Part shown: positions 26,471-57,483 of the stretch, in pieces
How the letters are laid out: every line of letters starts with the position of its first letter
Numbering within the stretch: the first letter of the stretch is position 1
Assembly: GCA_038060895.1 (NCBI GenBank)
Contig: JBBTCT010000009.1
Location: forward strand, 240,082-304,081
DNA from: Planctomycetota bacterium
Lineage (GTDB): Bacteria > Planctomycetota > MHYJ01 > WSZJ01
Direction: 5' to 3'
Length of the DNA stretch: 64,000 nt
The notes under the pieces: model-generated
The model's input: only the letters and a program-made list of their open reading frames with translations
Database searches by the model: none
What the model was told of the DNA's origin: nothing
Position numbers and translations under genes: made by a program

Positions 26471-26515
26471 CCAGGGCCGCGTTACGGCCCTAAAGACAAC
26501 CTTGAGGGAAATACC

Positions 26516-29419: not shown

Positions 29420-29480
29420 GGGCAGTAACACCCCGCCGGCAGTTGCCGGCAACGGAACGCACGAGACCGAAACTTAACTG

Positions 29481-29518
29481 GCGCACCCCGGAGGCGGAAG
29501 ACGCCTCCGGGGTTGCGC
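29481..29518 (+). other. Stable intergenic hairpin
   Basis: gcgca-ccccggaggcg gaaga cgcctccgggg-t-tgcgc with no U-tract. Confidence 0.6.
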
Positions 29519-29545
29519 TTCAAGAAAAGCGGAGAAAGCCACGTC

Positions 29546-32263
29546 ATGATTCGCCTTCTCATCCGGACGGGTGGGCAGAGCCGCGAGCTCTCCTTCGACG
29601 GGGCCGTCGTCAACTTCGGAAGCGGCGCGGAGTGCAAGGTCTGCGTGGACGATCCTCAGGCCGATGCGGAGCAGTGCCGCATTGAAAAGGTCCCCAACGG
29701 CTGGAAGCTCGTTGACCTCGAATCCACGAACGGCACGTCCGTGAACGGTGCCGTCGTGAACGCCCGCCTGCTCAAGGACGGCGACGTTATCCGCATCGGG
29801 GAGTTCGAGGCCGTGTTCAACCCGGGCGGCGCCTCCAGGACAGGCAAGCCGTCGCGCGCCGCGGCCCGCGCGGGAGCCGACGCCATGTTCTGGATCAAGA
29901 CCGGCGGCGTCGCGGCCGCTGTCCTGATCGCCACGGTCGTCGGCATCAAGGTTTTCGTCGGCGACGACAAGGCCGCCGCCCAGCGCGATTCCCTGAAGGC
30001 CGCACAGCAGACGGCCGGTAACGGCGACCTTGAGGCTGCCGAAGCGGCCATCAACGCGCTCCTTTCGGCGCCCATCGACCCGGGCGTCCAGCGTGATGCA
30101 AAGAAATCGCTCGACGACGTGCGCGCGAAGATCGCCTCCCGCAATGAAAGGGAACAAAGGGAACTGGAAGCGGCGATTGCGGCCGAGGAGGCCCGGCGGC
30201 GCGCAGACGAATTCCGGGTTCTGTTTGACGAGGCGACGACCGAGTCCGACCGCCTCGTCGTGCAGGAGAATTTCGGCGAGGCTCTGAACGTCTGGAAGAG
30301 CTTCGCGCGGGAAACGACGGACGCGGAATTCGCTTCAAAAATCGACGGACGCACGAAGGAAGTGCTGAAGGCTTCGCAGGACGCGTGGGATGCGCTGGAG
30401 ACGCGCGCGAACAGTCTGGTGAAAATGGAGGAGTATCCCCAGGCGGCGCTGGCGGTGGCGGCGGCCATCGAGAGATTCCAGGGAACGCGTTTCCGCTACC
30501 GCGCCCAGGAGAAGCTCGAGGGGATCCGCCGCCTGATGGGTGTGACGTCGGCGTACGTCGCCGGCGGCGCGAGCCTTACCGCCGGGGCGCAGGACTCCCT
30601 GCTCGCGATCGACGACCTCGTCAAGGCTCGCCGGTACGGGCAGGCGCTTCGCCAGATCGACGGCCTCCTCTCCTCGGTCACCGCCGACCATTCGGCGGCG
30701 CTTCGGGCCCAGCGCGCAGAAATCGCCGCGCAGGGAGAGTTGTTCGGAAAACTGGTGGCTGCCGTGAACAACGGCTGGTTCACGTCGCACCCGATCGAGC
30801 TCGGAAACGGAACCAGGGCCATCCTGGCGAAGGCGAACGACGAGGTTCTCGACGTCGAGTTCAAGGACGAGGAAGGGAAGGGCGGGACGTCTTCGCGGAA
30901 GTGGCCGCAGGTGGATGCGGAGGACATGCTCGGGTACTTCCGCGCGATCGAACTCGGGCCTGAGGACACGATCGCGCTGGCGGCGTTCTGCTACAGCAAC
31001 GGGCTCACCTTCGCTGGCGCGGAAATTCTGAGCGCAGCGATCGCTTCGGACCCCTTGAAGAAGCCGGCCGCGTTCGAGCTCGTCGCGCGCCACCGCGGCA
31101 TCCCGATTCCCGACGGCGGATTCGTCTGGTACGAGGGCGGCTGGTACACCAGCGAAGAACTGAAGTTCGCGAAGCTCGACCTGGACGTGAAGAAGGCGGC
31201 CCTGCTGCTCGGGAACATCGACGCGAAGAAGGCGGCGGAGGGGATGGCTCTGTACCGCCGCGCGACGAGCGACCCGTCGGCAGGGACCGAAGTGAAGTCG
31301 AAAGCGGTGACGCTCTGCGTCGGCGCCCTCAAGACGCGCCGGACGGCGATCCTGCGGAGGCTGCAGGACAGCCGGGGGCTCGTGAATCCCGCGGTGATGA
31401 CTGCGCTCAAGAAGGACCTGATCAAGCGTCGCCAGGCGGCCATCAAGGTCATCTTCGACGTGAAGATTTACCCCGAAGAGAATCACGGAATCGTCGGGCA
31501 ACCGACCGTGGACGCCGCCGTTGGAAAGGTTCGTGAGCTCTGGGACAACCCGCTTCAGGTGGTTTCGAAAGCAAATCCCGCGATTGAAAACATGATCGCC
31601 GCGAGCCAGCAGACGGACGACTGGCTGCGAGAGCTCGGCGCTTCCGCGACCGAAGCGGAGAAGGCCCTCGTGGCCAAGCTGCTGCTTCAGGTGAACGACG
31701 CGCTCAGCCTGAAGAACTACTGCATCAGCGGAAACGAGCGCTCCCAGCTCGAGAAATTCCGGGCCATCATGTCGTACAACGACCGCCATCTCGGCTTCGA
31801 CTCGCGCGAGAAGGACTGCATCCGGGCCACCAATGAGTACCGCTTCATGCTGGGAATCCAGGCCGTGGAAGCGCAGGACCAGCTGGGCCGCGCGGCGCGT
31901 AAGCACAGCGTGGAGATGGAGAAGCTCGGGTACTTCGCGCACGTCGGGCCGACGAAGGGCCTTGCGACGCCTGGCGAGCGGTGCGCAGCGGAAGGGTATG
32001 GCGGCGGCGGGGCCGAGAACATCGCCATGGGGAACGTCGAGGGAGAGCCGACGTTCCTGCAGTGGTACAACTCGAGCGGCCACCATCGCAACATGCTGGG
32101 CGGCCACACGCAGATCGGCATCGGCCGTTCGAACAACTACTGGACCGAGAACTTCGGCTCCAGCGGACCCTCGATGAAGGACAAGACCTCCGACGCGGGC
32201 GTCAAAGGTGCAAGTGTCGCGGGCGGTTCGACGGGCGGAGTGACCTGCGAAGACGGAAGGTAA
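29546..32263 (+). CDS. FHA(degenerate) - TM - helical - CAP domain protein, paralogue 3
   Basis: GGAG RBS; FGS and DAEQ replace GR and SxxH, DLESTNGT kept; HSVEM, YFAH, AENIA, WYNSSGHHRNML. Confidence 0.88.
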   Translation: MIRLLIRTGGQSRELSFDGAVVNFGSGAECKVCVDDPQADAEQCRIEKVPNGWKLVDLESTNGTSVNGAVVNARLLKDGDVIRIGEFEAVFNPGGASRTGKPSRAAARAGADAMFWIKTGGVAAAVLIATVVGIKVFVGDDKAAAQRDSLKAAQQTAGNGDLEAAEAAINALLSAPIDPGVQRDAKKSLDDVRAKIASRNEREQRELEAAIAAEEARRRADEFRVLFDEATTESDRLVVQENFGEALNVWKSFARETTDAEFASKIDGRTKEVLKASQDAWDALETRANSLVKMEEYPQAALAVAAAIERFQGTRFRYRAQEKLEGIRRLMGVTSAYVAGGASLTAGAQDSLLAIDDLVKARRYGQALRQIDGLLSSVTADHSAALRAQRAEIAAQGELFGKLVAAVNNGWFTSHPIELGNGTRAILAKANDEVLDVEFKDEEGKGGTSSRKWPQVDAEDMLGYFRAIELGPEDTIALAAFCYSNGLTFAGAEILSAAIASDPLKKPAAFELVARHRGIPIPDGGFVWYEGGWYTSEELKFAKLDLDVKKAALLLGNIDAKKAAEGMALYRRATSDPSAGTEVKSKAVTLCVGALKTRRTAILRRLQDSRGLVNPAVMTALKKDLIKRRQAAIKVIFDVKIYPEENHGIVGQPTVDAAVGKVRELWDNPLQVVSKANPAIENMIAASQQTDDWLRELGASATEAEKALVAKLLLQVNDALSLKNYCISGNERSQLEKFRAIMSYNDRHLGFDSREKDCIRATNEYRFMLGIQAVEAQDQLGRAARKHSVEMEKLGYFAHVGPTKGLATPGERCAAEGYGGGGAENIAMGNVEGEPTFLQWYNSSGHHRNMLGGHTQIGIGRSNNYWTENFGSSGPSMKDKTSDAGVKGASVAGGSTGGVTCEDGR

Positions 32264-32387
32264 AGTAAAAGTTCGGTAGAAGACGCTTGATTTCACCCCC
32301 GGGCGGGGTTCACAATAGCGCAGGGCGATTCGCAGCCGGCCACTACGGACGGCCCGAATACGCTGCAAAAAAAAGGGAGTGCGGCGC

Positions 32388-34034
32388 ATGACCAAGCAGA
32401 GGCTCTTCCTCGGGGCGCTGGGCCTCGTCCTGGCCCTCGCGATCCCGCTCGCGGCCGGGCCGTCCGGCGCCGAGTGGGACCAGATGAAGAAGGACTTCTA
32501 TCGCGACTTCGCCAACGCCGACATGGGCGTGAAGAAGTCCGCGCTGGAGCGCATCGCCGCGGTCAACACCGCCGATGCCGGCAAACTCCTGATCTCCGTG
32601 TACGGCGCGATCAAGCGCGACACGGACGCCCAGGAAAAGAAGATCCAGGTGGAAATCGACGACCTGGAGAACACGCTGAAGTCGTTGCGCAAGAATCCCT
32701 CCGCTCTTTCCGCGGGCGAGCAGGACCGGAAAGCGAAGCTGGAAGCGCAAGTGAAGGTGCAATCCGATGCCATCCAGAAGATCAAGAACGAGTCGAAAAA
32801 CCTGCTGGACACGATTGCCGGAGCAATCGGGAAGTTCACCGATCCGGCAGCGGTCGCCGAACTGCGGGCCCTGGTCATCAACAAGAACTCGGACTGGGCC
32901 GACCGGTACGCGGTTCTGTCCGGCCTCATCTCCGCCAAGTCGTCCGGCGTCGGCTCGATCTGCCTCGAAGCCGCGAAGGATTCGGACCCTCGGGTTCGCA
33001 TCCTCGCCCTCGATGCTCTTCTGAACCTGGACGAATGCAAGGCCGCCGAGTCGCTCTTCGTGACGGCCATCGAAGACCCCGCTCAGTGGCAGATCCGCCT
33101 CTGCGGCGTGTCGGGTGCCGAGAAGCTCCGCAGCAAGAACGGCATCGCCGCGATGATCCGCCAGCTCAAGAAGGAAGACGGTCGCCTTCGTGACGACATC
33201 TCCGGCGCGCTGAAGCGCATGATCGGGATGGATTTCGGCTACAACGCGCTGTCGTGGGAAGAGTGGTGGAAGACGAACGGCGACAAGTGGGACGGTAAGC
33301 CGATCGGCGGTGGCGCGACTGCAGGGAAGACTGAAAAGTCCCCCGGCGGCGCTCCGGGTGGAACCACGACCGAACCGCCGACGTTCTTCGGCCTCAAGAT
33401 CACTTCCAAGAAAATCGTCTTCGTCCTCGACGTCTCCGGCTCGATGCTCGACCCGAGCGCTCCGCCGGAAGGCGCTGACAAGCCGCCGCCGGTGGTCTCA
33501 GGCGGCGGGAACGGCCCGGCGCCGGCCCCGTGGGAGCCTGGCCTGAAGGGCGCGAAAATCGATGTCCTGAAGTACGAGTTCGAGAAGACGATGAACAAGC
33601 TGGAAGTCAAGACGACGTTCAACATCATCGTCTTCAGCGACAACCCGCTTCAGTGGAAGGACAAGATGCAGACGGCGACGCCGCCGATCAAGGCCGAGGC
33701 GATCGACTTCGTGAAGAAGCAGGCCGCCGCCGGCTCGACGAATACGGGCGACTCGCTCGAGAAGGCGTTCGAGCTCGCGGGGAACGGGTTGCACGACAAG
33801 TCATACGCCGCGCTCGTGGACACGATCTACCTCATGTCCGACGGGATGCCGTGCGCCGGCAAGTGGCCGACCCCGGACGAAGTCATCAAAAAGGTGCGGG
33901 AGTGGAACGTCCTCTCGAAGGTCATCATCAACACCGTCGGCATGGGCGACAAGGCCCTTGGCCCCGGCAACTTCAACGGGCAGTTCCTGCAGTCGCTTTC
34001 GCAGATGACGGGCGGGATTTTCGTGAAGCGGTAG
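32388..34034 (+). CDS. Secreted HEAT-repeat + von Willebrand A domain protein
   Basis: Signal peptide, coiled coil, HEAT repeats, WEEWW; PTFFG then MIDAS residues DVSGS, T (GSTNTG) and D (MSDGMP). Confidence 0.88.
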   Translation: MTKQRLFLGALGLVLALAIPLAAGPSGAEWDQMKKDFYRDFANADMGVKKSALERIAAVNTADAGKLLISVYGAIKRDTDAQEKKIQVEIDDLENTLKSLRKNPSALSAGEQDRKAKLEAQVKVQSDAIQKIKNESKNLLDTIAGAIGKFTDPAAVAELRALVINKNSDWADRYAVLSGLISAKSSGVGSICLEAAKDSDPRVRILALDALLNLDECKAAESLFVTAIEDPAQWQIRLCGVSGAEKLRSKNGIAAMIRQLKKEDGRLRDDISGALKRMIGMDFGYNALSWEEWWKTNGDKWDGKPIGGGATAGKTEKSPGGAPGGTTTEPPTFFGLKITSKKIVFVLDVSGSMLDPSAPPEGADKPPPVVSGGGNGPAPAPWEPGLKGAKIDVLKYEFEKTMNKLEVKTTFNIIVFSDNPLQWKDKMQTATPPIKAEAIDFVKKQAAAGSTNTGDSLEKAFELAGNGLHDKSYAALVDTIYLMSDGMPCAGKWPTPDEVIKKVREWNVLSKVIINTVGMGDKALGPGNFNGQFLQSLSQMTGGIFVKR

Positions 34035-34151: not shown

Positions 34152-35684
34152 GTGAGTGACGCTGCCAAGCAGGTCAAGATCTCGCCCGACACCGTCGAGG
34201 GGTACACCCTTCAGCAGCCCCTTGGACAGGGCTCTACCGGCTCCGTATTCAAGGCGAAGCGGACGTCCGACGGAGCGATGTTCGCGATCAAGCTGATTTT
34301 CCCTGCGCTCTCGAAGAAATCCGACTTCAACGCCAAGTTCGTCCGCCTCGCGCAGATCGGCGGCAAGGTCGATCACCCGAACATCGTCAGGACGATCGCT
34401 TCAGGCATCTCCAACGGATTCCATTTCGTCGTCATGGAGCACGTCGAGGGCAAGACGCTCGAGAGCGTGCTTTCGCGCGGCGCGATGGACGAACAGCGCG
34501 CCCTCCAGATCGTCCTGTCGGTGGCCCGGGCGCTGAAGCACGCGCAGGATGCCGGCGTGGTGCACCGTGACGTCAAGCCCGCGAACATCCTGTTGCCGCG
34601 AGGCGGGGAAGCGAAGCTGGCGGACCTCGGGCTCGCCATCATGGCGACGAATCCGAAGCTGGTCGGGGGCGCGACAGGGACGCCGCACTACATGTCCCCG
34701 GAGGCTGCCCGCAGCGACGCCAATATCGACGTTCGCTCCGACATCTACAACCTCGGCGCCACGCTTCATCACATGCTCACGGGCCAGACACTGTTCACCT
34801 TCAACAACATCGCCGAGATCGTGGCCGGGCATCTCTCCGAGCAGCCCAAGGCCGCGAACAAGGTCAATGCGACCGTTTCGAAGGGTGCCTCGAAGCTCGT
34901 CCAGCGCATGACGGAGAAAAAAGCGCAGGACCGCCCCTGGCCTGCCGACGTGATCGGGTTCGCCGAGGCCCTCCTGCGCGGCGACAAGCCCTTCGAGTCG
35001 GTCGGCGGGCGTCCATCGCGAGCCAAGTCGCAGGAAGCCGAACCCCGGATTTCCAAGGATTCCCCGACGCCCGCGATGCCTCCACCCGCACTTCAGATAC
35101 CTCTTCCGAACCGCGTGAGCAACCCATACGAAGAGACGATTTCGACGCCGATGCCTTCGAGCGGGAAAGGGGCGCCCGGCCGCTCCCCGGCACCGCATCC
35201 TTCGCCCTATCCGCCGGCGCCGCCGGTGGCGCCGCCAGCGGCTCCAGGGCCGCCGCCCGGTCATCGGCACCCGAATACGGCCTATCCGACGCCTCCGGCG
35301 CAGCAGCCCGGGCAGGGGCCGCCGTCGTGGCCGCCGCAGCCCGCGCCGCCCCCGGGCCGCGCTCCGTCGGGTTATCCTTCGCCCTATCCCCCCGCGGCGC
35401 CCTATCCGCCGCCGTACCCGCCCCAGGGCTACCCGCCTCCTCCGTACGGGTATCCGCCGCAGGCGCCGCCGCCACAGGGCTACCCACCGCAGGGGTATCC
35501 CCCGCAAGGCTACCCGCCCCAGGGGTATCCGCCGCAGGGCTACCCGCCCCCTGCCGCCCCACCCGGCACGCCGGCGCAACCGCCACCCTCCCAGCCGCCC
35601 GCACCGCCGGCAGCGAAGCCTCCGAAAAAGGGGCCGCCCAAGGGAAAGCGGCATATCGGGCGGCGATGGGGCGACCTGATTTAG
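34152..35684 (+). CDS. Hanks-type Ser/Thr protein kinase, soluble, with Pro/Tyr/Gln-rich tail
   Basis: LGQGSTG, AIK, HRDVKPANIL, DLG, GTPHYMSPE, SDIYNLG; no TM seen; GYPPQ repeats. Confidence 0.93.
   Translation: MSDAAKQVKISPDTVEGYTLQQPLGQGSTGSVFKAKRTSDGAMFAIKLIFPALSKKSDFNAKFVRLAQIGGKVDHPNIVRTIASGISNGFHFVVMEHVEGKTLESVLSRGAMDEQRALQIVLSVARALKHAQDAGVVHRDVKPANILLPRGGEAKLADLGLAIMATNPKLVGGATGTPHYMSPEAARSDANIDVRSDIYNLGATLHHMLTGQTLFTFNNIAEIVAGHLSEQPKAANKVNATVSKGASKLVQRMTEKKAQDRPWPADVIGFAEALLRGDKPFESVGGRPSRAKSQEAEPRISKDSPTPAMPPPALQIPLPNRVSNPYEETISTPMPSSGKGAPGRSPAPHPSPYPPAPPVAPPAAPGPPPGHRHPNTAYPTPPAQQPGQGPPSWPPQPAPPPGRAPSGYPSPYPPAAPYPPPYPPQGYPPPPYGYPPQAPPPQGYPPQGYPPQGYPPQGYPPQGYPPPAAPPGTPAQPPPSQPPAPPAAKPPKKGPPKGKRHIGRRWGDLI
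35472..35549 (+). repeat. 15-nt coding tandem repeat (PQGYP x5)
   Basis: Synonymously diverged repeats ccacagggctaccca/ccgcaggggtatccc/... inside the kinase tail. Confidence 0.85.
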
Positions 35685-47487: not shown

Positions 47488-48288
47488 ATGAGAACGCTGG
47501 CTCTTGCGGTGTGCGCCGTGGCGGGGATCGTCGGAAGTTGCGGATGTGGCGGACGGACCAGCACGAACCACCTGACGATTGCGGGCTCGACGGCATTCAC
47601 TCCCGTCGCGCAGAAACTGGCGGACGCGTTCAAGGCGAAGCACGCCGGCGTGACGATCGACATCCACTCGGTGGGCTCGATGGTCGGCATCAAGAACGTG
47701 AACGACGGCGCCTGCGACGTGGGAATGGCCGATCTTGCCGATCTGCCCGCCGAAGCCAAAGGGCTCAAGTCCTTCACGGTTTCCCGCGACGGCATCGCCG
47801 TGGTAGTCAATCCGGCGAATCCGGTCTCCGGGCTGGGCATGGACCAGATCGCGAAGATCTTCGACGGGTCGATCACCAACTGGAAAGACGTTGGCGGCGC
47901 AGACAAGTCGATTACGGTCATCTGCCGCGAAGAGAGCAGCGGTTCGCGGAAGACGTTTGACGCTATCGTGAAGGTGAAGGGAAAGGTCACCAAGACCGCC
48001 CAATTTCAGAACTCGAACGGCGCCTGCCGGACGGCGGTCGCGAGCGATCCGAACGCCATTTCCTACGTCACGATGGTCCAGGTCGATGCCTCCGTAAAAT
48101 CGCTCGCGATCGACAAGGTCGCGGCGACCATCGACAGCGTGCGCGAGGGAAAGTACACGATCGCCGCAACGGACTTCCTGCTGACGAAAGGGGAGCCCAC
48201 CGGGCTGGCGAAGGAGTTCATTGATTTCACGCTGAGCGATGAGGGGCAGAAGCTGATCAGGGAATCGGGATTGATCCCTGTGAAATGA
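47488..48288 (+). CDS. pstS: Phosphate ABC transporter substrate-binding protein
   Basis: IAGSTA, GSMVG, DGIAVVVN, REESSGSR; lipoprotein-like N-terminus; operon context. Confidence 0.93.
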   Translation: MRTLALAVCAVAGIVGSCGCGGRTSTNHLTIAGSTAFTPVAQKLADAFKAKHAGVTIDIHSVGSMVGIKNVNDGACDVGMADLADLPAEAKGLKSFTVSRDGIAVVVNPANPVSGLGMDQIAKIFDGSITNWKDVGGADKSITVICREESSGSRKTFDAIVKVKGKVTKTAQFQNSNGACRTAVASDPNAISYVTMVQVDASVKSLAIDKVAATIDSVREGKYTIAATDFLLTKGEPTGLAKEFIDFTLSDEGQKLIRESGLIPVK

Positions 48289-49142
48289 AGCGGGAAGAAG
48301 CCATCCGGCTGACCCTGCTGGGGTTGGCCATGTCGGCGGTGACCGCGCTGGCGGTGATCACGACATTCATCCTGAAGGAAGGGCTTCCCGTGATTTTCCG
48401 CCACGGGCCGGCCTCGTTCCTTTTCGGGTCGGACTGGAGTCCGTCCGCCGAGCCGCCCGTCTTTGGCGTGTTTGCCATGATCGCGGGGACATTTGCCGTG
48501 ACGTTCGGCGCGCTGGGGATCGGGGTTCCCGTTGGGCTGGGCTCCGCAATCTTCCTCTCGGAATTCGCACCGCGCCGGGTCGCTACGATTCTCAAACCCG
48601 CCCTCGAGCTCCTCGCGGGCATTCCCAGCGTCGTCTTCGGGTTTATGGGAATGCTCGTGCTCCTCCCGTTCATCCGGACTCATGTCGGAGGCCAGGGCGC
48701 CTCCGTTCTCGCCGGCTCCACCATCCTGGGCATCATGATCCTCCCGACCGTCATTTCAATCTCGATGGACGCCCTGCGATCCGTTCCTCGCAGCTACCGG
48801 GAAGGTTCCTTCGCCCTGGGCGCGACGGGGTGGCAGACGACCTGGAAGGTCACGCTTCCCGCCGCCCGACCAGGTCTCGTGGCCGCCGTCATTCTCGGAA
48901 TGGGGCGCGCAGTCGGCGAAACCATGGCCGTCATCATGGTGACGGGCAACACGGTCCAGATGCCGAAGTCCTTCCTCGCCCCGGTTCGGACCCTGACCTC
49001 GAACATCGCGCTGGAAATGTCGTACGCCGACGGGGAGCACCGCGAGGCTCTGTTCGCAACCGGCGTCATCCTCTTTGCCATCATCATGGCCCTCAATACC
49101 ATCGCTAACTCCGTCGGCAGGCTGGGGAGGAAGCGCTCGTGA
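48285..49142 (+). CDS. pstC: Phosphate ABC permease
   Basis: ELLAGIPSVVFG, RAVGETMAV, ALFATG. Confidence 0.95.
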   Translation: MKREEAIRLTLLGLAMSAVTALAVITTFILKEGLPVIFRHGPASFLFGSDWSPSAEPPVFGVFAMIAGTFAVTFGALGIGVPVGLGSAIFLSEFAPRRVATILKPALELLAGIPSVVFGFMGMLVLLPFIRTHVGGQGASVLAGSTILGIMILPTVISISMDALRSVPRSYREGSFALGATGWQTTWKVTLPAARPGLVAAVILGMGRAVGETMAVIMVTGNTVQMPKSFLAPVRTLTSNIALEMSYADGEHREALFATGVILFAIIMALNTIANSVGRLGRKRS

Positions 49143-49987
49143 GAGTTCCCCCGAAAGTGGTTCACGTATCGATGCTCGGAGTCCTGTGGACTGTGACGCT
49201 CGCGGCCGTTTTTACGCTCGTCGGGATTGTGGGATGGGTTCTCTGGCACGGACTGCCCGATGTCACGCCGCAATTCCTGTTCTCCATGCCGGCGGAGTCC
49301 GGCGCCGAGGGCGGCATCCTGTCCGTCATCGCCGGGACACTCTTCATCATCGTCGGCGCAGTCCTCGTGGCCACGCCCCTGGGCGTCGGGACGGCGATCT
49401 ACCTCGTCGAGTACACCCGCGAGAACTGGGTGACTCGCGTTATCCGCTACGGCGCCGACTGCCTCGCAGGCATCCCGTCGATCATCTTCGGGCTCTTCGG
49501 GTACGTCTTCTTCGTCATCACGCTCGGCCTCCGCTGGTCCATCCTCTCGGGCGCGCTCACCTTGGCCTTGATGTCCCTCCCGACGATCATCCGGACGGCC
49601 GAAGTCGCCCTTCGCGCCGTGCCCCAGGGGTATCGCGAAGTTTCCTACGCCCTCGGGGCAACCCGCTGGCAGATGGTCCTCCGGGTCGTCCTTCCCGGAG
49701 CGCTCCCGGGAATCGTCACCGGCATCGTCCTGGCCCTGGGAAGGTCCATGTCCGAAACCGCGGCCGTCATCTTCACCGCCGGAACCGTCCTCCCTGACCG
49801 CATCCCGACTTCCACGGGGGACTCCGTCCGCACCCTCGCCGTCCACTTTTACCTCCTCGCCACCGAGGGAACGGCCGGCTCACAGCCCAAGGCCTTCGCG
49901 ACAGCCGCCATCCTCGTTCTCGCCATCCTCGTCATCAACGTCTCCGCCTATACCGCCATGCACCGCTTCCTCGCAAGGTACCGTTGA
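49139..49987 (+). CDS. pstA: Phosphate ABC permease
   Basis: AIYLVEY, LAGIPSIIFGLFG, RSMSETAAV. Confidence 0.95.
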   Translation: MRVPPKVVHVSMLGVLWTVTLAAVFTLVGIVGWVLWHGLPDVTPQFLFSMPAESGAEGGILSVIAGTLFIIVGAVLVATPLGVGTAIYLVEYTRENWVTRVIRYGADCLAGIPSIIFGLFGYVFFVITLGLRWSILSGALTLALMSLPTIIRTAEVALRAVPQGYREVSYALGATRWQMVLRVVLPGALPGIVTGIVLALGRSMSETAAVIFTAGTVLPDRIPTSTGDSVRTLAVHFYLLATEGTAGSQPKAFATAAILVLAILVINVSAYTAMHRFLARYR

Positions 49988-50739
49988 TCCCTCTCCTCGA
50001 AGCACGCGGATTTGGCGTCTCCCTCGGAGGTGCCTCCGTACTCCGGAATGTCGATCTCGCCATGAATCCCAACGAGATCCTCTCGATCATCGGGCCGGCG
50101 GGAAGCGGCAAGACGACCTTCCTGCGTTGCATCAACCGGCTGAGCGACCTGGTGCCAGAAACCCGCGTCGTGGGAAATCTGTCCTTCGAGGGACGGGACG
50201 TTTTCGCACCAGGGACAGACGTCGCCGCCCTGCGCCGCCGCGCCGGAATGGTGTTCGCAGTTCCGAACCCGCTTCCCAGGTCCATTTACGAGAACATCGC
50301 CTTCGGCCCGAGACTGACGGGATTGCGGTCCCGCGACGTCCTCGATGAAATCGTCGAGCGCACCCTGCGCGCGTCGGTGCTGTGGGACGAAGTCAAAGAC
50401 CGGCTGCATACCTCTGGGACGAAACTCTCGGGCGGCCAGCAGCAGCGCCTCTGCCTGGCGCGGACGCTGGCCCTGGGACCGCAGGTGCTTCTCCTCGACG
50501 AGCCGTGCTCGGGACTCGATCCGATATCGACTGCGAAAATCGAGGAAGCGCTTCAGGACCTGAAAAAAACGCTGACCGTCGTGCTCGTGACGAACAACGT
50601 GAAGCAGGCGGCGCGATCGAGCGACCGCACCGCGTTCTTCCTGATGGGAGAAATGGTCGAGATCGGCGTGACGGGGGAGCTGTTTACCCACCCGCGGGAC
50701 AAGCGGACGAACGACTACATCTCGGGGAGGTTCGGGTAA
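49984..50739 (+). CDS. pstB: Phosphate ABC ATPase (copy 1, degenerate Q- and H-loop)
   Basis: GPAGSGKTT, LSGGQQQR, DEPCSGLDP, DYISGRFG. Confidence 0.92.
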   Translation: MIPLLEARGFGVSLGGASVLRNVDLAMNPNEILSIIGPAGSGKTTFLRCINRLSDLVPETRVVGNLSFEGRDVFAPGTDVAALRRRAGMVFAVPNPLPRSIYENIAFGPRLTGLRSRDVLDEIVERTLRASVLWDEVKDRLHTSGTKLSGGQQQRLCLARTLALGPQVLLLDEPCSGLDPISTAKIEEALQDLKKTLTVVLVTNNVKQAARSSDRTAFFLMGEMVEIGVTGELFTHPRDKRTNDYISGRFG

Positions 50740-51485
50740 TGCTGGAGGCCCGTAACCTGAAGCTCTGGTACGGCGACTTCATGGCGCTCAATGGCGTCTC
50801 CATGTCCATCATTCCCAACGCCATCACGGCCATCATCGGTCCGTCCGGCTGCGGCAAGTCGACGCTGCTGCGCTGTTTCAACCGCATGAACGACCTGGTG
50901 GAGGGCTCGCGGACCGAGGGCGAAATCCTCTTCGAGGGCAAGAACATCTATGAGCGCCGCTTCGACATGACGGAGCTTCGGAAGCGCGTCGGAATGGTGT
51001 TCCAGCGCCCGAACCCGTTTCCGCTCACCGTTTTCGACAACGTCGCCTACGGCCCGCGCATCCACGGCCTTGCCACCGGCGACGCGCTCCGGGAAACCGT
51101 CAAGAAGGCGCTCCAGTCGACGCTTCTCTGGGACGAACTCGGCGACAAGCTCGAAGCCCCGGCGCTGTCGCTTTCCGCGGAGCAGCAGCAGCGGCTCTGC
51201 ATCTCCCGGCTGGTCGCTGTCGAGCCCGATGTCCTCCTGATGGACGAGCCGTGTTCGGCGCTGGATCCGATGGCGACGCAGAACATCGAGGAACTGATGC
51301 TAGAATTGAAGAAGCGATTCACGATCGTGATCGTCACCCACAATATGCAACAGGCCGCCCGCGTCAGTGACTTCACCGGGTTCATGCTCCTGGGGGACCT
51401 TGTCGAGTTCGGCGAGACGCAGCAGGTGTTTACGGCGCCTCGCCAGCGGAAGACGGAGGAGTACATCACCGGGAGGTACGGCTAG
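50739..51485 (+). CDS. pstB: Phosphate ABC ATPase (copy 2, degenerate signature motif)
   Basis: ATG overlaps the previous TAA; GPSGCGKST, MVFQRPNPF, VTHNMQQA, EYITGRYG. Confidence 0.95.
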   Translation: MLEARNLKLWYGDFMALNGVSMSIIPNAITAIIGPSGCGKSTLLRCFNRMNDLVEGSRTEGEILFEGKNIYERRFDMTELRKRVGMVFQRPNPFPLTVFDNVAYGPRIHGLATGDALRETVKKALQSTLLWDELGDKLEAPALSLSAEQQQRLCISRLVAVEPDVLLMDEPCSALDPMATQNIEELMLELKKRFTIVIVTHNMQQAARVSDFTGFMLLGDLVEFGETQQVFTAPRQRKTEEYITGRYG

Positions 51486-51487
51486 AG

Positions 51488-52165
51488 ATGAAGCGGCACT
51501 TCGACGAAGAGCTGGCGCAGGTCAAGGAGCGGCTTCTCCGCATGGGGGCCAATGCTGAGAAGATGATCCATCTTTCCGCGAAGGACCTGCTGGCGCGGAC
51601 GGAATCGGACCGGGCGGAGCTGGAGCGGCTCGAGAAGGACGTCAACAGCCTGGAGATGGAAATCGACGACCGGGTCGTCAAGCTGATCGCGCTCCGTCAG
51701 CCGATGGCCACGGACCTGCGCTTCCTGATGATGGCCAGCCGCATCGCGGGCGAGCTGGAGCGGATTGCGGACCAGTCGATCAACATCATCGAGACGACGC
51801 ACTGGTACCTGTCCGGTCCACCGTTGAAGCCGATCATGGATCTGCCGCTGATGGCGGAGATCGTGCAGGAGATGCTGCGGGACTGCCTGGACGCATTTGT
51901 GAGGCAGGACGTGGGGGCGGCGAAGCGGGTGCTGGAGAGCGACGACAAGGTGGACACGTGCAAGAAGCGGATCTTCGACGAGATGATCGCGACGATGGAG
52001 GGCGATCCTCAGACGGTCAGGCGCGGGGTGTGCATCGTGCTGATTTCGCGGAACCTGGAACGGATCGGGGACCACGCGACGAATATTGCGGAAGAAGTCA
52101 TCTACATGGTGGAGGCGCGGGACGTGCGCCACCACCACGGGGAAGAATCGAAGCCAGGGGAATGA
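51488..52165 (+). CDS. phoU: Phosphate signalling protein PhoU
   Basis: QPMATDLR, ERIADQS, ERIGDHATNIAEEVIY. Confidence 0.96.
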   Translation: MKRHFDEELAQVKERLLRMGANAEKMIHLSAKDLLARTESDRAELERLEKDVNSLEMEIDDRVVKLIALRQPMATDLRFLMMASRIAGELERIADQSINIIETTHWYLSGPPLKPIMDLPLMAEIVQEMLRDCLDAFVRQDVGAAKRVLESDDKVDTCKKRIFDEMIATMEGDPQTVRRGVCIVLISRNLERIGDHATNIAEEVIYMVEARDVRHHHGEESKPGE

Positions 52166-52181
52166 AAGGACGGGATGGAGT

Positions 52182-52871
52182 TTGGCGAAAATACTGGTGA
52201 TCGACGACGAAGCAGACCTCGTCACGCTCGTGAAGTTCAACCTCGAAAGGGAGGGCTGGAAGGTCAGGTCCGCAGCGGACGGCGCGTCCGGGCTCGATGC
52301 GGCGAAGCGGGATCTGCCGGACCTGATCCTGCTGGACCTCATGTTGCCCGGAATGGACGGGCTGGAGGTCTGCAAACGGCTTCGTTCGGAGCCGCGGACG
52401 GCGCGCATTCCTGTGATCATGCTCACCGCGAAGGGCGGGGAGTCGGACCGCGTGGTCGGGCTGGAGATGGGCGCCGATGACTACGTCGCGAAACCTTTCA
52501 GCCCACGGGAACTCGTTGCGCGCGTCAAGGCGGTGCTCCGCCGGGCTTCCGGCCCCGCGGAGGGAGAAGACGCGGCAGGGGTTTCCCATGGTGACCTTCA
52601 GCTGGACCCGGGACGGCACGAAGTCCTCGTAAAAGGAAAGCCGGTCACGCTGACCGCCACGGAATTCCGGCTGCTGCATACCCTCCTCAAGCGGCCCGGG
52701 CAGGTCTTTTCGAGAGACCGGCTCATCGACGGCGCCATCGGCGAGGACGCCCACGTCGTCGACCGCACGATCGACGTGCACGTCACCGCGCTTCGCAAGA
52801 AACTCGGAAAGTCCGGCGCCATGATCGAGACGGTCCGTGGCGTCGGCTACCGCGTGAAAGACGAGGGATAG
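52182..52871 (+). CDS. phoB: OmpR/PhoB family response regulator
   Basis: GGAG plus TTG start; ILVIDDE, DLMLP, GADDYVAKPF, RTIDVH, TVRGVGY. Confidence 0.92.
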   Translation: MAKILVIDDEADLVTLVKFNLEREGWKVRSAADGASGLDAAKRDLPDLILLDLMLPGMDGLEVCKRLRSEPRTARIPVIMLTAKGGESDRVVGLEMGADDYVAKPFSPRELVARVKAVLRRASGPAEGEDAAGVSHGDLQLDPGRHEVLVKGKPVTLTATEFRLLHTLLKRPGQVFSRDRLIDGAIGEDAHVVDRTIDVHVTALRKKLGKSGAMIETVRGVGYRVKDEG

Positions 52872-52877
52872 GCTCGC

Positions 52878-54590
52878 ATGCTCACCGACCCCGCGTTCCG
52901 GCGCACCTTTCTTACGGCCGCGCTGCTCTCAGGGGTCGGTATGGCGGCGATAGCGGGAACCCTCTGCTGGCAGCAGGAAACGGCACACGAAATCCTCGTG
53001 CGGTCGAAGATGGCGCACGAGGCCGTGCTCGTTTCCGTGCATTGCTCTACTCGTTTCTTGCCGGCTCAGCCGCGCTTGCTCGAGGCCGAACTCGGCCCCC
53101 TCGCCCGCTCGCTGGGCGCCCGCATCGACGTCTACGACCCGTCGAACGGCAGCGTTCTGGCCTCGGGAGACGCGGGAAGCGGCGTCACGGCGTTCAAGTC
53201 TTCGCCGGCCGGCGGAGATTTTCGCGGCCCGGACGGCGCGGGGCGGGAAGTGGTCTCGGCGACGTTCGGCCCGGTCCCGTTGAACCGGGGCCGGGGGATT
53301 GAAGTGCGGGTCACGCGCCTCGCGGAGGTGGTCGACGCGCCGCTTCGAGAGTCTCAACGCCGGATCGCAGGCGCAGCCGCGGCAGCCTGGATCGCATCTC
53401 TCGCCATTTTCTTCATGGCGTTCTCTTCCATCCACGCGCGCGCAGCTTCGCTCCGGCTCGCGCTCAACGAACCCAAGGCAATCCTCCCGCCAGACCTCGG
53501 CGGCGTCCTCGGCGACATCGCCCGACGGACCGCGGGGCTTCTAGAGGAGTCCCGCGACGTCCAGAAGGACCGAAGCGCGATCCGGACCGAGGCAGACGCG
53601 ATCCTGGGCGGCATGACGGAAGGCGTCATTGCCGTCGACCGCGAGGGGCGCCTGAGGATCGTGAACGCGGCCGCGGCAGAGATCCTGGGGCTGGGCGGGG
53701 GCACGACGCTGGGCCAGCCGATCGGCGGCGTGGTGCGCTTCGAGGGGATCGCCGAAGCCGCCGCCAGGGCCGCGGGCGGGGCAGAACGGACCATCCGGGT
53801 CGACATTCCGGGGCCGCCACCGCGCGTGCTCGAGGTCCATGCGGAGCCGATTCCACAGGCCGGCGGAGCGGTGCTGGTGCTTCGCGATGTTTCGGAGGAA
53901 GCGAAGTACGCGGACATGCGCCGCGATTTCGTCGCGGCGGCATCGCACGAACTTCGGACTCCGATCGCCGTCATCCGGGCCGCCGCGGAAACCCTTCAGG
54001 ACGGCGCGTTGGAGCAGCCGGCACAGGCGAAGCAATTCCTCGACTCGATTCACCGGCACGCGCTGTCGATGGAAGCCCTGATCAAGGACCTGCTCGACCT
54101 GGGCAAGCTCGAGTCGCGCCCGGACCTGACGCTGCGCCCGACCGACGTCGCGCAGGTGCTGGACCGCGCGGTCGCGCTTCATGAGCCGGAGGCGAAGAAG
54201 CGCCGCCACGAAATCAAGGTTGCTGCGGCGGACACCCTTCCGCGCCTCATCGCCGATGCATCCCTCCTGGAGCGGGCCTTCTCGAACATTGTGGAAAACG
54301 CGGTCCGGTACACGCCGGACGAAGGGAAGATCTCTATCCGCGTGACGGCTGAGGGCGACAAGGTGCGGGTCGAGATTGAGGACACGGGGGCCGGAATCCC
54401 GGAGAAGGAACTCAAGAGGATCTTCGAGAGGTTCTATCGCGTCGACCGTTCGCGCTCACGGGAGCAGGGCGGCACCGGTCTCGGGCTCGCGATCGTGAAG
54501 CACGTTGTTCAGCTGCACAAAGGCGAGGTGTGGGCTGAGAGTGGGGCGGGGAAGGGAGCGAAATTCATCGTGGTACTGCCCGGGATCTAA
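52878..54590 (+). CDS. phoR: PhoR-like sensor histidine kinase (PAS, HisKA, HATPase)
   Basis: Two TMs, PAS, SHELRTP, ENAVRY, FERFYRVDRSRSREQGGTGLGL. Confidence 0.92.
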   Translation: MLTDPAFRRTFLTAALLSGVGMAAIAGTLCWQQETAHEILVRSKMAHEAVLVSVHCSTRFLPAQPRLLEAELGPLARSLGARIDVYDPSNGSVLASGDAGSGVTAFKSSPAGGDFRGPDGAGREVVSATFGPVPLNRGRGIEVRVTRLAEVVDAPLRESQRRIAGAAAAAWIASLAIFFMAFSSIHARAASLRLALNEPKAILPPDLGGVLGDIARRTAGLLEESRDVQKDRSAIRTEADAILGGMTEGVIAVDREGRLRIVNAAAAEILGLGGGTTLGQPIGGVVRFEGIAEAAARAAGGAERTIRVDIPGPPPRVLEVHAEPIPQAGGAVLVLRDVSEEAKYADMRRDFVAAASHELRTPIAVIRAAAETLQDGALEQPAQAKQFLDSIHRHALSMEALIKDLLDLGKLESRPDLTLRPTDVAQVLDRAVALHEPEAKKRRHEIKVAAADTLPRLIADASLLERAFSNIVENAVRYTPDEGKISIRVTAEGDKVRVEIEDTGAGIPEKELKRIFERFYRVDRSRSREQGGTGLGLAIVKHVVQLHKGEVWAESGAGKGAKFIVVLPGI

Positions 54591-54707: not shown

Positions 54708-55937
54708 CTACCAGCCGTAGTCCCCGATGCTCGCCGGGACCATCCGGTCCGTCGGCGTATCAGGCGCGAGCTGAATCGCGTAGCCCATCGGCGCGGGATC
54801 GAAGTCGTTGTTCCGGAAGTTGTAGCGTGTGCCGCCCCAGCGGGTGCCGGTGCTGGTGAGGTCGAGTGAAATGAAGCGGCGGCCCTGGAGGCTCCAGACG
54901 CCGCGGCCGAGGATGGTGCCGCGGTAACCGCGCTCCTGATCTTTTTCTCCGGTGTCGTCGGCGGCCCAGCGGCCCTTGTGGACCAGTTCAACCGGGCCTT
55001 CGTAGCGGACGGTGACCCTGTCTCCCTTGACGGACTCGATCGTGGCCTTGAGTGACGCCTGCTTCACGGCCTCATCGGGAAAAGCGTTCGTCTGGCCGCG
55101 GACGTTATCGACGAAGTGGCACCGCACGAGCCGCCGGACCAGCGCCTCCGGAACCTCGCGGTAAGCGCCTTTCGAAGTGGACTCCGGCATCCATGACGTC
55201 ATCTCGTCCTTGAGGAACCACGCGTAGTCGATGTTCCATGCGGGATCGCGCCAGTCGCCGAATTTCTTTTCGCGCGGGAGGTCGCGGGAGTACACGCGCA
55301 ACGCCATTCCGTCCCCAGGGTAGCGGTCCTCCCAGCGGCCCTTGATTTCCTCCGGTTTCTCCTTCAGGAGGCGCCGGTCCTTCGGCAGGTCTTCCCAGGC
55401 CTTCAGCGCTTCCTTGAGCATCCGTTCCACGGCGTCGGCACTCGTCGAGTTCACGCTTGCCAGGAACTCGCCGGACGGCGCCAGCGCGTAGATGCCTTGC
55501 CGCGTCGCGTCCATCGGGTTGCCGGCGTAGTGGCCTTTCTCGGAGACGAGACGGAAGTGTTTACCCGCGGGGCCCTGGTTGCGGTGAAGGGTGTGGACTT
55601 CGTCGGTCGCGGGGATGAACGATTTCATCAGTTCCTGGACATCGGGTTCCGCCCAGACGGACCGCCGGGCGCGGACGCCGTTGTTTCAGGTGCAGGCGAG
55701 CGGGTGCCCGTTCATCGTCCAGAGGAGAACGGGCCGGCCGGCCTTGTTTCCGTCGAGCACCGCGGTCCAATAAGAGGTGCGCCACGGGATGGCGCGCCAC
55801 TTCTCTTCGTCGGGCTTCGGGAGAATCGTCTCCCGCATTGCGGCGAGGTTCTTTTCCGTCAGGACGGGATCGGCTGGCTGCGCGGACGCCTGCAGGCCTG
55901 CGAGGAGGAGAAGAGCGGCGGCGTGAGGGCGCATCAT
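54708..55937 (-). CDS. Candidate secreted thioredoxin-like selenoprotein (C-T-U; UGA at 55686-55688 read as Sec)
   Basis: Two tracked ORFs are in one frame, separated only by TGA; the joined sequence reads MNGHPLACT-U-NNGVRARRSVW. Signal peptide; hairpin just downstream of UGA. Confidence 0.75.
55648..55675 (-). other. Candidate bacterial SECIS element
   Basis: UCCG-C-GCCCGG-CGGUCCGU-CUGGGC-GGA hairpin starting 11 nt after UGA, with G-containing apical region about 22-29 nt downstream. Confidence 0.55.
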
Positions 55938-56079
55938 GTCCCGGCATCTTAACCGGGCACACTGAAGGACGTACCGCGGGATCAAACGTTTCAGGCATCC
56001 GGTGGTCGACGGGCCGTTACGCGGGTCGCGCGGTTCGGTTACGATGATTGCGGTCCGGGGGGACCGGAGAACCCACTTC

Positions 56080-57483
56080 ATGCGCCAGCTTGCCGCATTT
56101 TTCTGCCTGATGGCCGCCGCGGCCGCCGCGGAAACCCCGTACCGCGACCTCCGCCGGCCGCCGATTCAGCGCCCCTACAAGTCGCTCGTCATTGAATGGA
56201 TTTCGCAGGAGCCGAAGAACAGTGTTTCGAAGGACGGCGATTCCAGCGGACCTTCGGAAGGGCAGTCGCTTTCCTACACCGCGCACCTGCGGAATCTGGG
56301 TTCCGTGAACACGGAGCCGGTGATGGTGCGGTGGTTCGTGGATGGCCTTCAGAAGTCCACCGGGACGATCCCCGGGATCGGGGCGGGCCAGCGTTCGACC
56401 GCGACCTTTGCGTGGACGGCGGCCGAGGGCCGGCACTGGATCCAGTGCGAGCTGCTCGGGCACGAGGAGTGGCTGACGATCGCCAGCGACGGGCTGACGG
56501 TGAAGGTGCTCGTCGAAAAAAAAACATTGGAGAAGTACGAGGACGAATTCGGCTCGTTCGCGCGCCGCTTCCAGGATTCATTCTCGGGCCTCCACGCCTC
56601 GTGGTCGGCCGTCCGCGACGCCCGGTTCGCTCCTGAAGGGATCGACGAGCGCCTCCGGATCGACGACGTCGCCGTCTACGAACGCGGCGGCAAGGATGCC
56701 GAGGTCCCGAAGGAATTCTGGGATCACCCCGACTTCGACCTCGAGATCGCCTGCGACCAGGGAGGCCCGATCGCCGGCTTCTACATCCCGGGTTACTCGA
56801 TCGGCCACAACTACTCCGGGAACCCCGGCCACGAATCCCTCTTCTCAGACTGGGGCGAGAACTGCCTCTGGCACGAGATCGGACATTTCCGCGGCGTGCA
56901 GGACTTCTACATCTTCCCGACGAAAGAGGGCGACGTCGGCAAGCTCGACGCCGCCGGGAACCCCCTGGAACTCCTCACCCTGCGCCCGGAATTCGCCGAC
57001 GACACCATGAACTCGCCGTACAAGCCGACCCGCTGGAACGAGTACTCGACGGCGGTGATTCGCATGAAGCGCGGCATTTCGCGCGTCGGGCGATGCGAGG
57101 ATCCGGCCAACACCTTCGGGCACATGTGGCGCCACGTCCCGGCGGCGGTGGAAATCCAGGTCATCGGGGAGGAAGGCAGGCCGGTGAAGTACGCCGAAGT
57201 CGAGGTTTACCGGCCGGTGCTCGGAGAAGATGGACGTGCCCGGGTCGCGAAAGACGCGAAGCCCCTGTACGAGGGAGCGGTCGATGACCAGGGACACTTC
57301 ATACTCGGCGACGATCCTTTCGGGAAGCGCAAGGCCGAGGCAAATCGCGCGCCCTGGGTGCTGATCCTGATCCGGAGAGAAGGAGTGATTCGCGGGCGGT
57401 ACCTGACCCTCATGGACATGAACCTGGCGTACTGGAAAGACCAGAAAGAGAAGGCCATTTTCCAGGTCGTCTGGAACAAGTGA
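56080..57483 (+). CDS. Secreted CARDB-like domain + zinc metallopeptidase
   Basis: Signal peptide; HLRNLG...VRWFVDG...FAW Ig-like motif; LWHEIGHFRGVQD zincin motif. Confidence 0.75.
   Translation: MRQLAAFFCLMAAAAAAETPYRDLRRPPIQRPYKSLVIEWISQEPKNSVSKDGDSSGPSEGQSLSYTAHLRNLGSVNTEPVMVRWFVDGLQKSTGTIPGIGAGQRSTATFAWTAAEGRHWIQCELLGHEEWLTIASDGLTVKVLVEKKTLEKYEDEFGSFARRFQDSFSGLHASWSAVRDARFAPEGIDERLRIDDVAVYERGGKDAEVPKEFWDHPDFDLEIACDQGGPIAGFYIPGYSIGHNYSGNPGHESLFSDWGENCLWHEIGHFRGVQDFYIFPTKEGDVGKLDAAGNPLELLTLRPEFADDTMNSPYKPTRWNEYSTAVIRMKRGISRVGRCEDPANTFGHMWRHVPAAVEIQVIGEEGRPVKYAEVEVYRPVLGEDGRARVAKDAKPLYEGAVDDQGHFILGDDPFGKRKAEANRAPWVLILIRREGVIRGRYLTLMDMNLAYWKDQKEKAIFQVVWNK

Follow-up and report, generated by a model that had tools for sequence, protein, structure and literature searches.

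The minus strand of a 64,000-nucleotide (nt) stretch of planctomycete DNA (contig JBBTCT010000009.1, positions 240,082 to 304,081; hereafter the window) carries, at 54708-55937, what is very probably a genuine single gene for a selenocysteine (Sec)-containing protein with a thioredoxin fold. Mechanical calling of open reading frames (ORFs) splits it in two at an in-frame TGA. We further propose, tentatively and with slightly less than even confidence, that it is the founding example of an uncatalogued family in which Sec forms, not Cys forms, dominate. Its members would be exported two-domain Cys-x-Sec enzymes joining a Thioredoxin_7-like scaffold to a beta domain without a counterpart among solved structures, common in Planctomycetota and Armatimonadota and often present as two paralogues per genome.

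One reading frame across a conserved TGA

The two minus-strand ORFs, 55686..56081 and 54708..55628, lie in one frame and are set apart only by the TGA (55686-55688) and 19 sense codons, a TGA-to-ATG gap of 57 nt. The upstream ORF ends in ...WTMNGHPLACT; after the TGA the frame goes on as NNGVRARRSVWAEPDVQEL to the ATG at 55626-55628. When translation is started at the ATG at 55935-55937 and the TGA is read as Sec (U), the product is 409 amino acids (aa) long, begins with MMRPHAAALLLLAGLQASAQP, carries its Sec at residue 84 (U84), and contains the strings IPW...GRPVLLWTMNGHPLACT-U-NNGVRAR and KSFIPATD. An earlier note, made from the letters of this DNA, had described the arrangement in the same terms, and all of its coordinates hold. 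A tblastn search with the readthrough protein matched 55937..54711 as one segment and found only one copy of the family in the window.

The family was collected in three ways. A scan of 185,579 species genomes gave 270 loci, the best 80 of which were fetched (L001 onward) and underlie the locus counts given here; a word-indexed protein search returned 173 relatives at E<=1e-3, 120 of them listed; and an exhaustive HMMER search returned 1713 cluster representatives at E<=1e-3, 259 of them at E<=1e-30. When the match frame was followed upstream, exactly one in-frame TGA was found in all 80 loci, in the identical alignment column. The surrounding motif is NGH[PA]x[AG]C[TV]-U-NNG[VIL], with M-N-G-H-P before the UGA and an invariant N-N-G after it (N at +1 and +2 and G at +3 in 80/80). 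Cys at -2 and His at -6 are each present in 79/80, and Cys82 is at least 95% conserved among 76 Sec forms. By record label, the loci belong to Planctomycetota (63), Armatimonadota (13), Verrucomicrobiota (1) and a Pseudomonadota-labelled metagenome-assembled genome (MAG; 1), while two carry no phylum label. The sole gammaproteobacterial record among the 80, a 7.4-kb contig of a Glaciecola-labelled MAG (L066), groups in a quick tree with a Planctomycetota locus (L048), and mis-binning of a short contig seems likelier here than transfer. Four MAGs hold two diverged paralogues each, both with the TGA (L001 and L010, L004 and L006, L011 and L026, L014 and L030).

Residue conservation is highest at positions 61-100, around U84. 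Between the window and L001, the 60 codons upstream of the TGA differ by 22 synonymous and 4 non-synonymous changes, and the 19-codon stretch from the TGA up to the next ATG by 5 synonymous changes and 1 non-synonymous change; as judged from these comparisons, purifying selection acts on both sides of the TGA. Public proteins end or begin at the same place. Among the 120 matches listed, 119 span no more than 79% of the query and begin shortly after the TGA, many of them at codon 88, which lies four codons beyond it; P0023 (408 aa) is a full-length relative. In the best 150 HMMER cluster representatives, the best stretch begins at residue 88 or later in 139 and before residue 85 in 11. Public N-terminal fragments are 78-91 aa long, and the eight that were fetched all stop at this TGA, ending ...HPLACT. 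Given that such calls begin at the signal peptide, the 5′ part of the upstream ORF (55938-56081) is probably not translated, and the downstream ORF is an artefactual truncation. One further N-terminal fragment (P0273, 91 aa) ends ...MNGHPCGET before its stop, which suggests, from its sequence, a C-x-x-x-U spacing in one sublineage.

These data bear directly on the alternative that the TGA is a true stop, in which case the locus would encode two independent products, a secreted peptide of 83 aa and a protein of 306 aa, or would be a pseudogene or an assembly error. The public annotations that we met do treat the locus in this way, every member being named "hypothetical protein", for the ~82-aa and ~320-aa pieces alike. 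A close relative that is 92% identical to the window (L004) also has a frameshift ~167 codons after the Sec codon, beyond which the protein resumes in the +1 frame; the shift reflects an assembly error or else a pseudogene in the MAG concerned. However, the stop would cut one predicted thioredoxin domain in two, separating strand 70-75 from helix 85-93 (predicted local distance difference test, pLDDT, 93.6), and the next 19 codons, which are under purifying selection, rank among the best conserved of the gene. The same TGA recurs in all 80 loci, across four named phyla as labelled, and in independent near-identical assemblies (P0003 on 3 contigs; P0264), and full-length homologues without the stop exist. 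The conserved TGA, the purifying selection and the exact fragment ends together exclude a sequencing error, a pseudogene and two independent genes for practical purposes. The true-stop alternative is thus largely refuted, and we find it scarcely credible.

The full-length homologues without the TGA also speak for a Sec codon. At the U column, 6 of these 11 carry Cys (S-T-C twice, Q-A-C, C-T-C and C-N-C twice), three of the six being of the C-x-C form; Sec/Cys pairs are a criterion used in the selenoprotein field (PMC13188914 section 6). The single gene split at a Sec-type UGA that the earlier note proposed is borne out by these counts. A homologue search seeded with the C-T-C form, P0190, returned only P0190 itself. 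In a quick tree of 29 Sec and 10 non-Sec forms, 21 of the 36 inner branches were left open, and because the tree is so poorly resolved, Sec versus Cys ancestry is not readable from it.

A predicted exported protein with a thioredoxin fold and a beta domain

The signal-peptide-like N-terminus has neither a twin-arginine motif nor a lipobox Cys and is modelled at a pLDDT of 55-60 over residues 1-20. By a crude rule that asks for a hydrophobic stretch after the start codon, 65 of 78 loci qualify, and signal-peptide-like sequences also open the public N-terminal fragments, in keeping with the export that had been proposed for this protein.

The readthrough protein was modelled with AlphaFold2 from a 39-sequence alignment; the same number of members was used in the Pfam and NCBIfam scans of the family. 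The model has a mean pLDDT of 93.6 and a predicted template-modelling (TM) score, pTM, of 0.90. The low-confidence signal peptide is followed by three helices and then by strand 70-75, loop 76-84, helix 85-93, strand 108-113, helix 123-132, strands 148-152 and 158-162, and helix 167-183. This beta-alpha-beta-alpha-beta-beta-alpha topology is that of thioredoxin, in which U84 directly precedes the first active-site helix and C82 lies in the loop before it. A Foldseek search against the Protein Data Bank (PDB) matched AGR2, AGR3, ERp19, DsbD-gamma, DsbH and 3f9u, with probabilities of 0.93-1.00 and TM-scores on the target (TMt) of 0.51-0.66. The top targets (AGR2, 3f9u, a DsbH domain, AGR3 and ERp19), which are single-domain, have a probability of 1.00 and a TMt of 0.59-0.66, while TMt is 0.14-0.17 for the 600-residue 7tkv chains; the root-mean-square deviation of the top set is 3.7-6.7 Å. 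A guess at secondary structure by Chou-Fasman and periodicity proved unreliable and was superseded by the AlphaFold2 model.

Sequence models recognize this domain faintly. Thioredoxin_7 (PF13899) gives weak matches in 7 of the 39 members (best E 0.0054), and the window protein has no PF13899 match at E<=1, which places it outside curated-threshold membership. The family profile and the N-terminal domain, compared with PDB chain sequences, gave chance matches only (E>=0.16). At the N-terminus of helix 1, the motif is C82-T83-U84 and not C-x-x-C (or U/C-x-x-C/U/S). The description of the protein as thioredoxin-like is supported by the topology and by the AGR2/ERp19/DsbD-gamma/DsbH-type matches, and its non-canonical CxU site by the Cys at -2 in the fetched loci.

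The rest of the protein, residues 205-409, consists of long antiparallel strands and reaches a pLDDT of 94.7 when modelled alone. Its conserved motifs are SRDLPR, WNxDxAWF, VDNVRGQT and GTRWGGTxYNxRxDD. It has no convincing counterpart in the PDB: the best Foldseek match is LmcA (7shw_B; E 1.2e-2, probability 0.54, TM-score on the query, TMq, 0.28), lipocalin and beta-barrel proteins come next, and no TM-score exceeds 0.32. LmcA is a lipid-related periplasmic protein. The domain has no Pfam name and falls in no named cluster of the ESM Atlas, where the downstream ORF (translated with table 11) likewise meets only unnamed clusters. A beta-rich C-terminal domain of ~200 aa and unassigned function, as predicted earlier, is therefore what the confident model describes.

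The C-terminal domain is retained in relatives without redox residues and in fusions. The two-domain module occurs with a Ser/Thr kinase and Kelch repeats in P0123 (1541 aa), where G-T-G-D stands in place of C-T-U; with a PQQ/BamB-like propeller in P0125 (720 aa); and with a SecDF P1-head-like domain in P0223 (738 aa). At locus L051, a PQQ_2 gene lies directly downstream.

Across the whole protein, the invariant polar residues include N76, N85, N86, R91, T145-R146-Q147, R218, D219, N235, D237, R269, D277, R366 and R375. Such a set would also suit a selenoprotein that is not a thiol-disulfide oxidoreductase. In one version, H78...C82-x-U84 would form a binding site for a soft metal or metalloid (Cu, Hg, As, Se, Te), comparable to the Sco-like and metallochaperone variants of the thioredoxin fold; in the other, U84 would be peroxidatic, like glutathione peroxidase (GPx) or peroxiredoxin (Prx), and have the invariant residues Q147, W181 and either N163 or N85 as its partners. 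Either way, an anionic or lipidic substrate would be held by the Arg-rich C-terminal domain. The near-invariant His at -6 and Cys at -2 point in this direction, as do invariant N85, N86, R91 and T145-R146-Q147 and the C-domain arginines R218, R269, R366 and R375. The catalogued selenoproteins include several metal binders and peroxidases (Table 1, PMC13188914), the yeast GPx-like Hyr1 stands far down the Foldseek list (3cmi, probability 0.38), and the best, though weak, C-domain match is LmcA, ahead of lipocalin and beta-barrel proteins. Nevertheless, none of the 39 members has a GPx, Prx, Sco or heavy-metal match in Pfam or NCBIfam at E<=10, the mapping of residues to functions is putative, and the gene neighbourhood has no metal or peroxide theme. 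We regard such a metal binder or peroxidatic enzyme as rather unlikely.

Decoding of the UGA

The E. coli fdhF element is a known bacterial selenocysteine insertion sequence (SECIS). In the window, a GC-rich hairpin occupies nt 9-46 after the U of the UGA. Its core, nt 14-41, begins 10-11 nt after the UGA, its apical loop is GUC (nt 27-29, a spacing of 23 nt), and its minimum free energy (MFE) is -19.7 kcal/mol. The bacterial SECIS (bSECIS) model calls for a loop of 3-9 nt with a G within the first two loop positions, an upper stem of at least 4 bp, a distance of 16-37 nt from the UGA and an MFE of -7.5 kcal/mol or lower (PMC13188914 section 5, Fig. 2 legend). We applied these constraints to the MFE fold of nt 4-60 after the UGA in 81 post-UGA segments, from the window and the 80 loci. 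They are satisfied in 70 of the 81, the window included. The corresponding counts are 257 of 1215 (21%) for random in-frame positions within these genes and 1429 of 4860 (29%) for synonymous recodings that leave the peptides unchanged. Among the 70 passing sequences, 60 have a UGA-to-loop spacing of 22-23 nt, and GUC or GGUC(N) predominates as the loop. The family mean MFE is -12.67 kcal/mol, compared with -10.46 for the synonymous recodings.

The codons that form the stem are also held fixed. The ratio of observed to expected synonymous heterozygosity is 0.00 at A90 (45 sequences, one codon) and at R92 (52 sequences, one codon), 0.10 at V94 and 0.08 at N85, and near 1 at R91, G87 and V88. Synonymous constraint as strong as that over codons 85-97 is reached in only 3 of 376 13-codon windows. 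The fixed codons in the alignment are GCC, CGG and GTC, which make up the stem. Where the peptide differs (L009, L010, L017, L022 and L070), another hairpin, shifted or different, stands at about the same place. Thus the proposal of a SECIS just 3′ of the UGA finds support in the consensus limits and in the frozen synonymous sites alike.

TGA is used as an ordinary stop both in the window, where it ends 8 of 25 Pfam-supported genes, and in the family, where it ends 34 of 78 genes; the genetic code is therefore not reassigned. This has to be set against the alternative that the UGA is decoded otherwise, by readthrough with a near-cognate or suppressor tRNA that inserts Trp, Cys, Gly or Arg, or by a lineage-wide reassignment. 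That alternative draws on the available sequence being without Sec machinery: no selA, selB, selD or tRNA-Sec, and no tRNAs at all, lie within the 64-kb window, and loci L001-L060 contain no tRNA-Sec. It draws also on the UGA-to-Trp reassignment that PMC13462651 reports for some bacterial phyla, including Verrucomicrobiota. However, 6 of the 11 homologues that lack the TGA carry Cys at this position, rather than Trp or Gly, and a structured element with frozen synonymous sites lies at SECIS distance. In addition, family members L037, L072 and L075 come from Gemmataceae and Isosphaeraceae MAGs, families for whose cultured members Gemmata obscuriglobus and Isosphaera pallida selA, selB, selC and selD are listed in PMC4807772, including its Table S8. 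Decoding as anything other than Sec is highly improbable.

Several results nevertheless weigh against a Sec-encoding gene, beginning with the missing Sec genes and tRNAs just described. Taken alone, the window hairpin is no stabler than dinucleotide shuffles (z -0.71, -0.53) or than its own synonymous recodings (z ~0), and 47% of these recodings also pass the SECIS model. RNAalifold found no consensus structure in the 81 aligned segments. In a hand-named 6-bp helix with 84% pairing, covariation is weak: it scores 0.104, where shuffles average 0.089 and 35 of 500 of them do as well, an outcome put down to the constraint that Trp, Val and Arg codons place on the arms. Per-sequence folding, recoding controls and synonymous heterozygosity were used in place of these two approaches. 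Rfam, searched at E<=10, gave no match beyond two chance small-RNA hits. At the U column, the other 5 of the 11 full-length homologues have A, R, S, D and D, and the kinase fusion P0123 has D as well. On the protein side, the signal peptide was judged by a crude hydrophobicity rule only, and the Foldseek E values of the thioredoxin domain are 2.1e-3 at best (to ~1e-2), with none at or below 1e-3. Finally, there is no conserved neighbour or operon partner that hints at a substrate: BLAST clustering of 433 flanking ORFs showed nothing common beyond close relatives, and a Pfam scan of the 139 ORFs nearest to the family genes revealed neither a recurring theme nor any sel gene. Two of these points can be placed. 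Non-Cys residues at the U column indicate that the fold can exist without the redox residue, and the support for the SECIS comes from the family and not from the window sequence alone; at the family level it is strong.

Taken together, our results favour Sec insertion at residue 84, for which the following course is proposed. SelB with Sec-tRNA(Sec) would recognize the hairpin, with its G- or GU-first loop 23 nt after the UGA, and insert Sec. The protein would be exported by the Sec translocon and its signal peptide removed. U84 would act as the nucleophile, activated at the helix N-terminus by the helix dipole, and U84 and C82 would cycle between a selenol/thiol pair and a C82-S-Se-U84 selenenylsulfide. 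The protein would then be a periplasmic oxidoreductase, of the thiol-disulfide or the peroxide/oxyanion type, whose conserved Arg-rich C-terminal beta domain may bind the substrate or a partner. For the U84/C82 redox cycle itself, we hold the case to be evenly balanced.

Genomic surroundings and relation to known systems

The features of the gene are collected in Table 1.

Table 1. Coordinates of the predicted selenoprotein gene and its parts in the window
Feature	Position	Strand	Basis or remark
Predicted complete selenoprotein coding sequence	54708..55937	-	409 codons and TAG stop (54708-54710), start ATG (55935-55937); one-gene layout in 80/80 loci
Signal-peptide-like N-terminus, residues 1-19, MMRPHAAALLLLAGLQASA then QP	55881..55937	-	Read from the sequence
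N-terminal thioredoxin-fold domain, ~residues 30-190	55368..55850	-	AlphaFold2 and Foldseek
Cys82 codon of the C-T-U motif, candidate resolving residue	55692..55694	-	Cys at -2 in 79/80 loci
In-frame TGA, predicted U84, last residue before helix 85-93	55686..55688	-	TGA column in 80/80 loci; helix position from AlphaFold2
SECIS-like stem-loop within the coding sequence, nt 9-46 after the UGA	55643..55680	-	Core stem 55648-55675; apical loop GUC 55660-55662
C-terminal beta-rich domain, ~residues 205-409	54711..55325	-	AlphaFold2 models; invariant residues
Upstream ORF as called mechanically	55686..56081	-	Its stop is the predicted Sec codon
Downstream ORF as called mechanically, 306 aa	54708..55628	-	Starts inside the thioredoxin domain

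A pst-pho cluster on the plus strand (47488-54590) converges on the gene. It comprises PstS-like (47488-48285), PstB-like ATPase (50382-51482) and PhoU-like (~51490-52150) genes, a response regulator (~52200-52871) and a PAS histidine kinase (52878-54590); a long minus-strand ORF at 51482-52426 was rejected as an antisense artefact. On the other side, the divergent neighbour at 56002-57483 (+) encodes a protein with a signal peptide, a CARDB domain and a HEIGH (HExxH) zinc-protease-like motif. The intergenic region between the two is ~60-140 nt, and this synteny is apparently limited to the closest relatives. The selenoprotein gene also diverges from a galactokinase gene. The two largest clusters of flanking ORFs were antisense ORFs over the selenoprotein gene itself and were set aside.

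Further off in the window, three tandem paralogues of ~920-1010 aa (23438-32260, +) have an N-terminal FHA and a C-terminal CAP (cysteine-rich secretory protein) domain and next to them come a VWA/HEAT protein (32379-34031) and then a Ser/Thr kinase (34152-35681). At 594-3522 (-), a multihaem c-type cytochrome with MtrC/NrfB-like domains adjoins a Rieske protein, a pairing that suggests an extracytoplasmic electron-transfer module. Only 7 of 112 TGA-split candidates in the window pass a filter on GC content at third codon positions (GC3), and of these only the selenoprotein gene is credible; the best other candidate is antisense to the phoU-like gene. In the flanks of the 80 loci, 23 TGA-split candidates were met, none of which is credible or matches a known selenoprotein family, and the look-alikes at L033 and L078 are not homologous.

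Because UGA is taken for a stop, the annotation of selenoprotein genes goes wrong systematically. This family, with no fewer than 270 hits in the species genomes scanned and 1713 cluster representatives at E<=1e-3, is split in the public records that we met. Recognizing it would correct those annotations, extend the selenoproteome catalogue and mark Planctomycetota and Armatimonadota genomes as Sec users; it would also offer a compact, well-conserved SECIS for these phyla. If our proposal is true, periplasmic selenium-dependent chemistry would be standard cell-envelope biology of these largely environmental lineages, which are barely represented in selenoproteome surveys. The substrate could then be a specific disulfide, peroxide or oxyanion held by the Arg-rich beta domain, and the redox-dead relatives that carry a Ser/Thr kinase would be sensors derived from this ligand-binding module. 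The unusual C-x-U active site and the unassigned beta domain are targets for biochemistry and structure. The understanding of Sec insertion is left unchanged, and the finding is therefore an extension rather than a surprise of principle.

Among known systems, the bacterial SECIS consensus (bSECISearch model, PMC13188914) shares with the element described here a stem-loop directly 3′ of the UGA within the ORF, an MFE below -7.5 kcal/mol and an apical loop of 3-5 nt, led by G or GG and then U, 22-23 nt from the UGA. In contrast to that consensus, the sequence here is family-specific (GCC-NGN-CGG-UCN-GUC-UGG) and belongs to no Rfam family, and SelB binding is predicted.

The closest structural relatives are the Thioredoxin_7-type domains (PF13899) of DsbD gamma (1vrs, 2fwe, 1uc7), DsbH (2ju5, 7tkv), 3f9u, which is an exported cytochrome c biogenesis-related domain of Bacteroides, and AGR2/AGR3/ERp19 (9i3u, 3ph9, 1sen). 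They share the topology with leading helices, the placing of an active-site residue where the first helix behind strand 1 begins, and an exported or periplasmic/endoplasmic reticulum location, export being predicted in our case. The window family differs from them in having C-x-U where they have C-x-x-C, in a long loop between strand 1 and the helix (MNGHPLACTU), and in its fusion to the ~200-residue C-terminal beta domain, which has no solved counterpart; none of its members has a convincing Pfam score.

Known thioredoxin-like selenoproteins share the thioredoxin-type fold, the Sec in a redox motif and gene calls truncated at the UGA, and Sec.1 is a precedent for C-x-U in a thioredoxin-like protein. 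Their models match the family marginally (NF041382 in 4 of 39 members, best E 0.021; NF041199 in 1 of 39, E 0.12), PF13192 gives no match, and the length, the signal peptide with a two-domain layout and the UNNG motif set the family apart. A 2026 review assigns a domain identifier to each of 119 prokaryotic selenoprotein families and subfamilies (Table 1, PMC13188914), and BSepDB counts 111 families; we could match none of them to this protein. By model, the C-x-U entries NF041203, NF041198, NF041072 and PF13192 of that table do not match. The window protein has no NCBIfam match at E<=1 and no relevant Pfam match, so that the Pfam- and NCBIfam-defined families of the catalogue are unmatched, those defined by CDD or PANTHER only lying outside this comparison. 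The sections of BSepDB and deep-Sep covered here do not mention Planctomycetes. We found no description of such a family in the literature, Deng et al. 2026 (Cell Rep 45:116760) and Haft & Tolstoy 2025, either of which could list it, being outside our coverage. Table S9 of PMC4807772, within the portions used here, holds one "hypothetical" planctomycete selenoprotein candidate for which no sequence is given and which could be a member of the window family. Within the bacterial thioredoxin-fold selenoproteins with an intragenic SECIS, the family thus appears to be new, or at least uncatalogued and unannotated, and is distinguished by its C-x-U centre, its strong Sec dominance, its predicted export and its unassigned beta domain.

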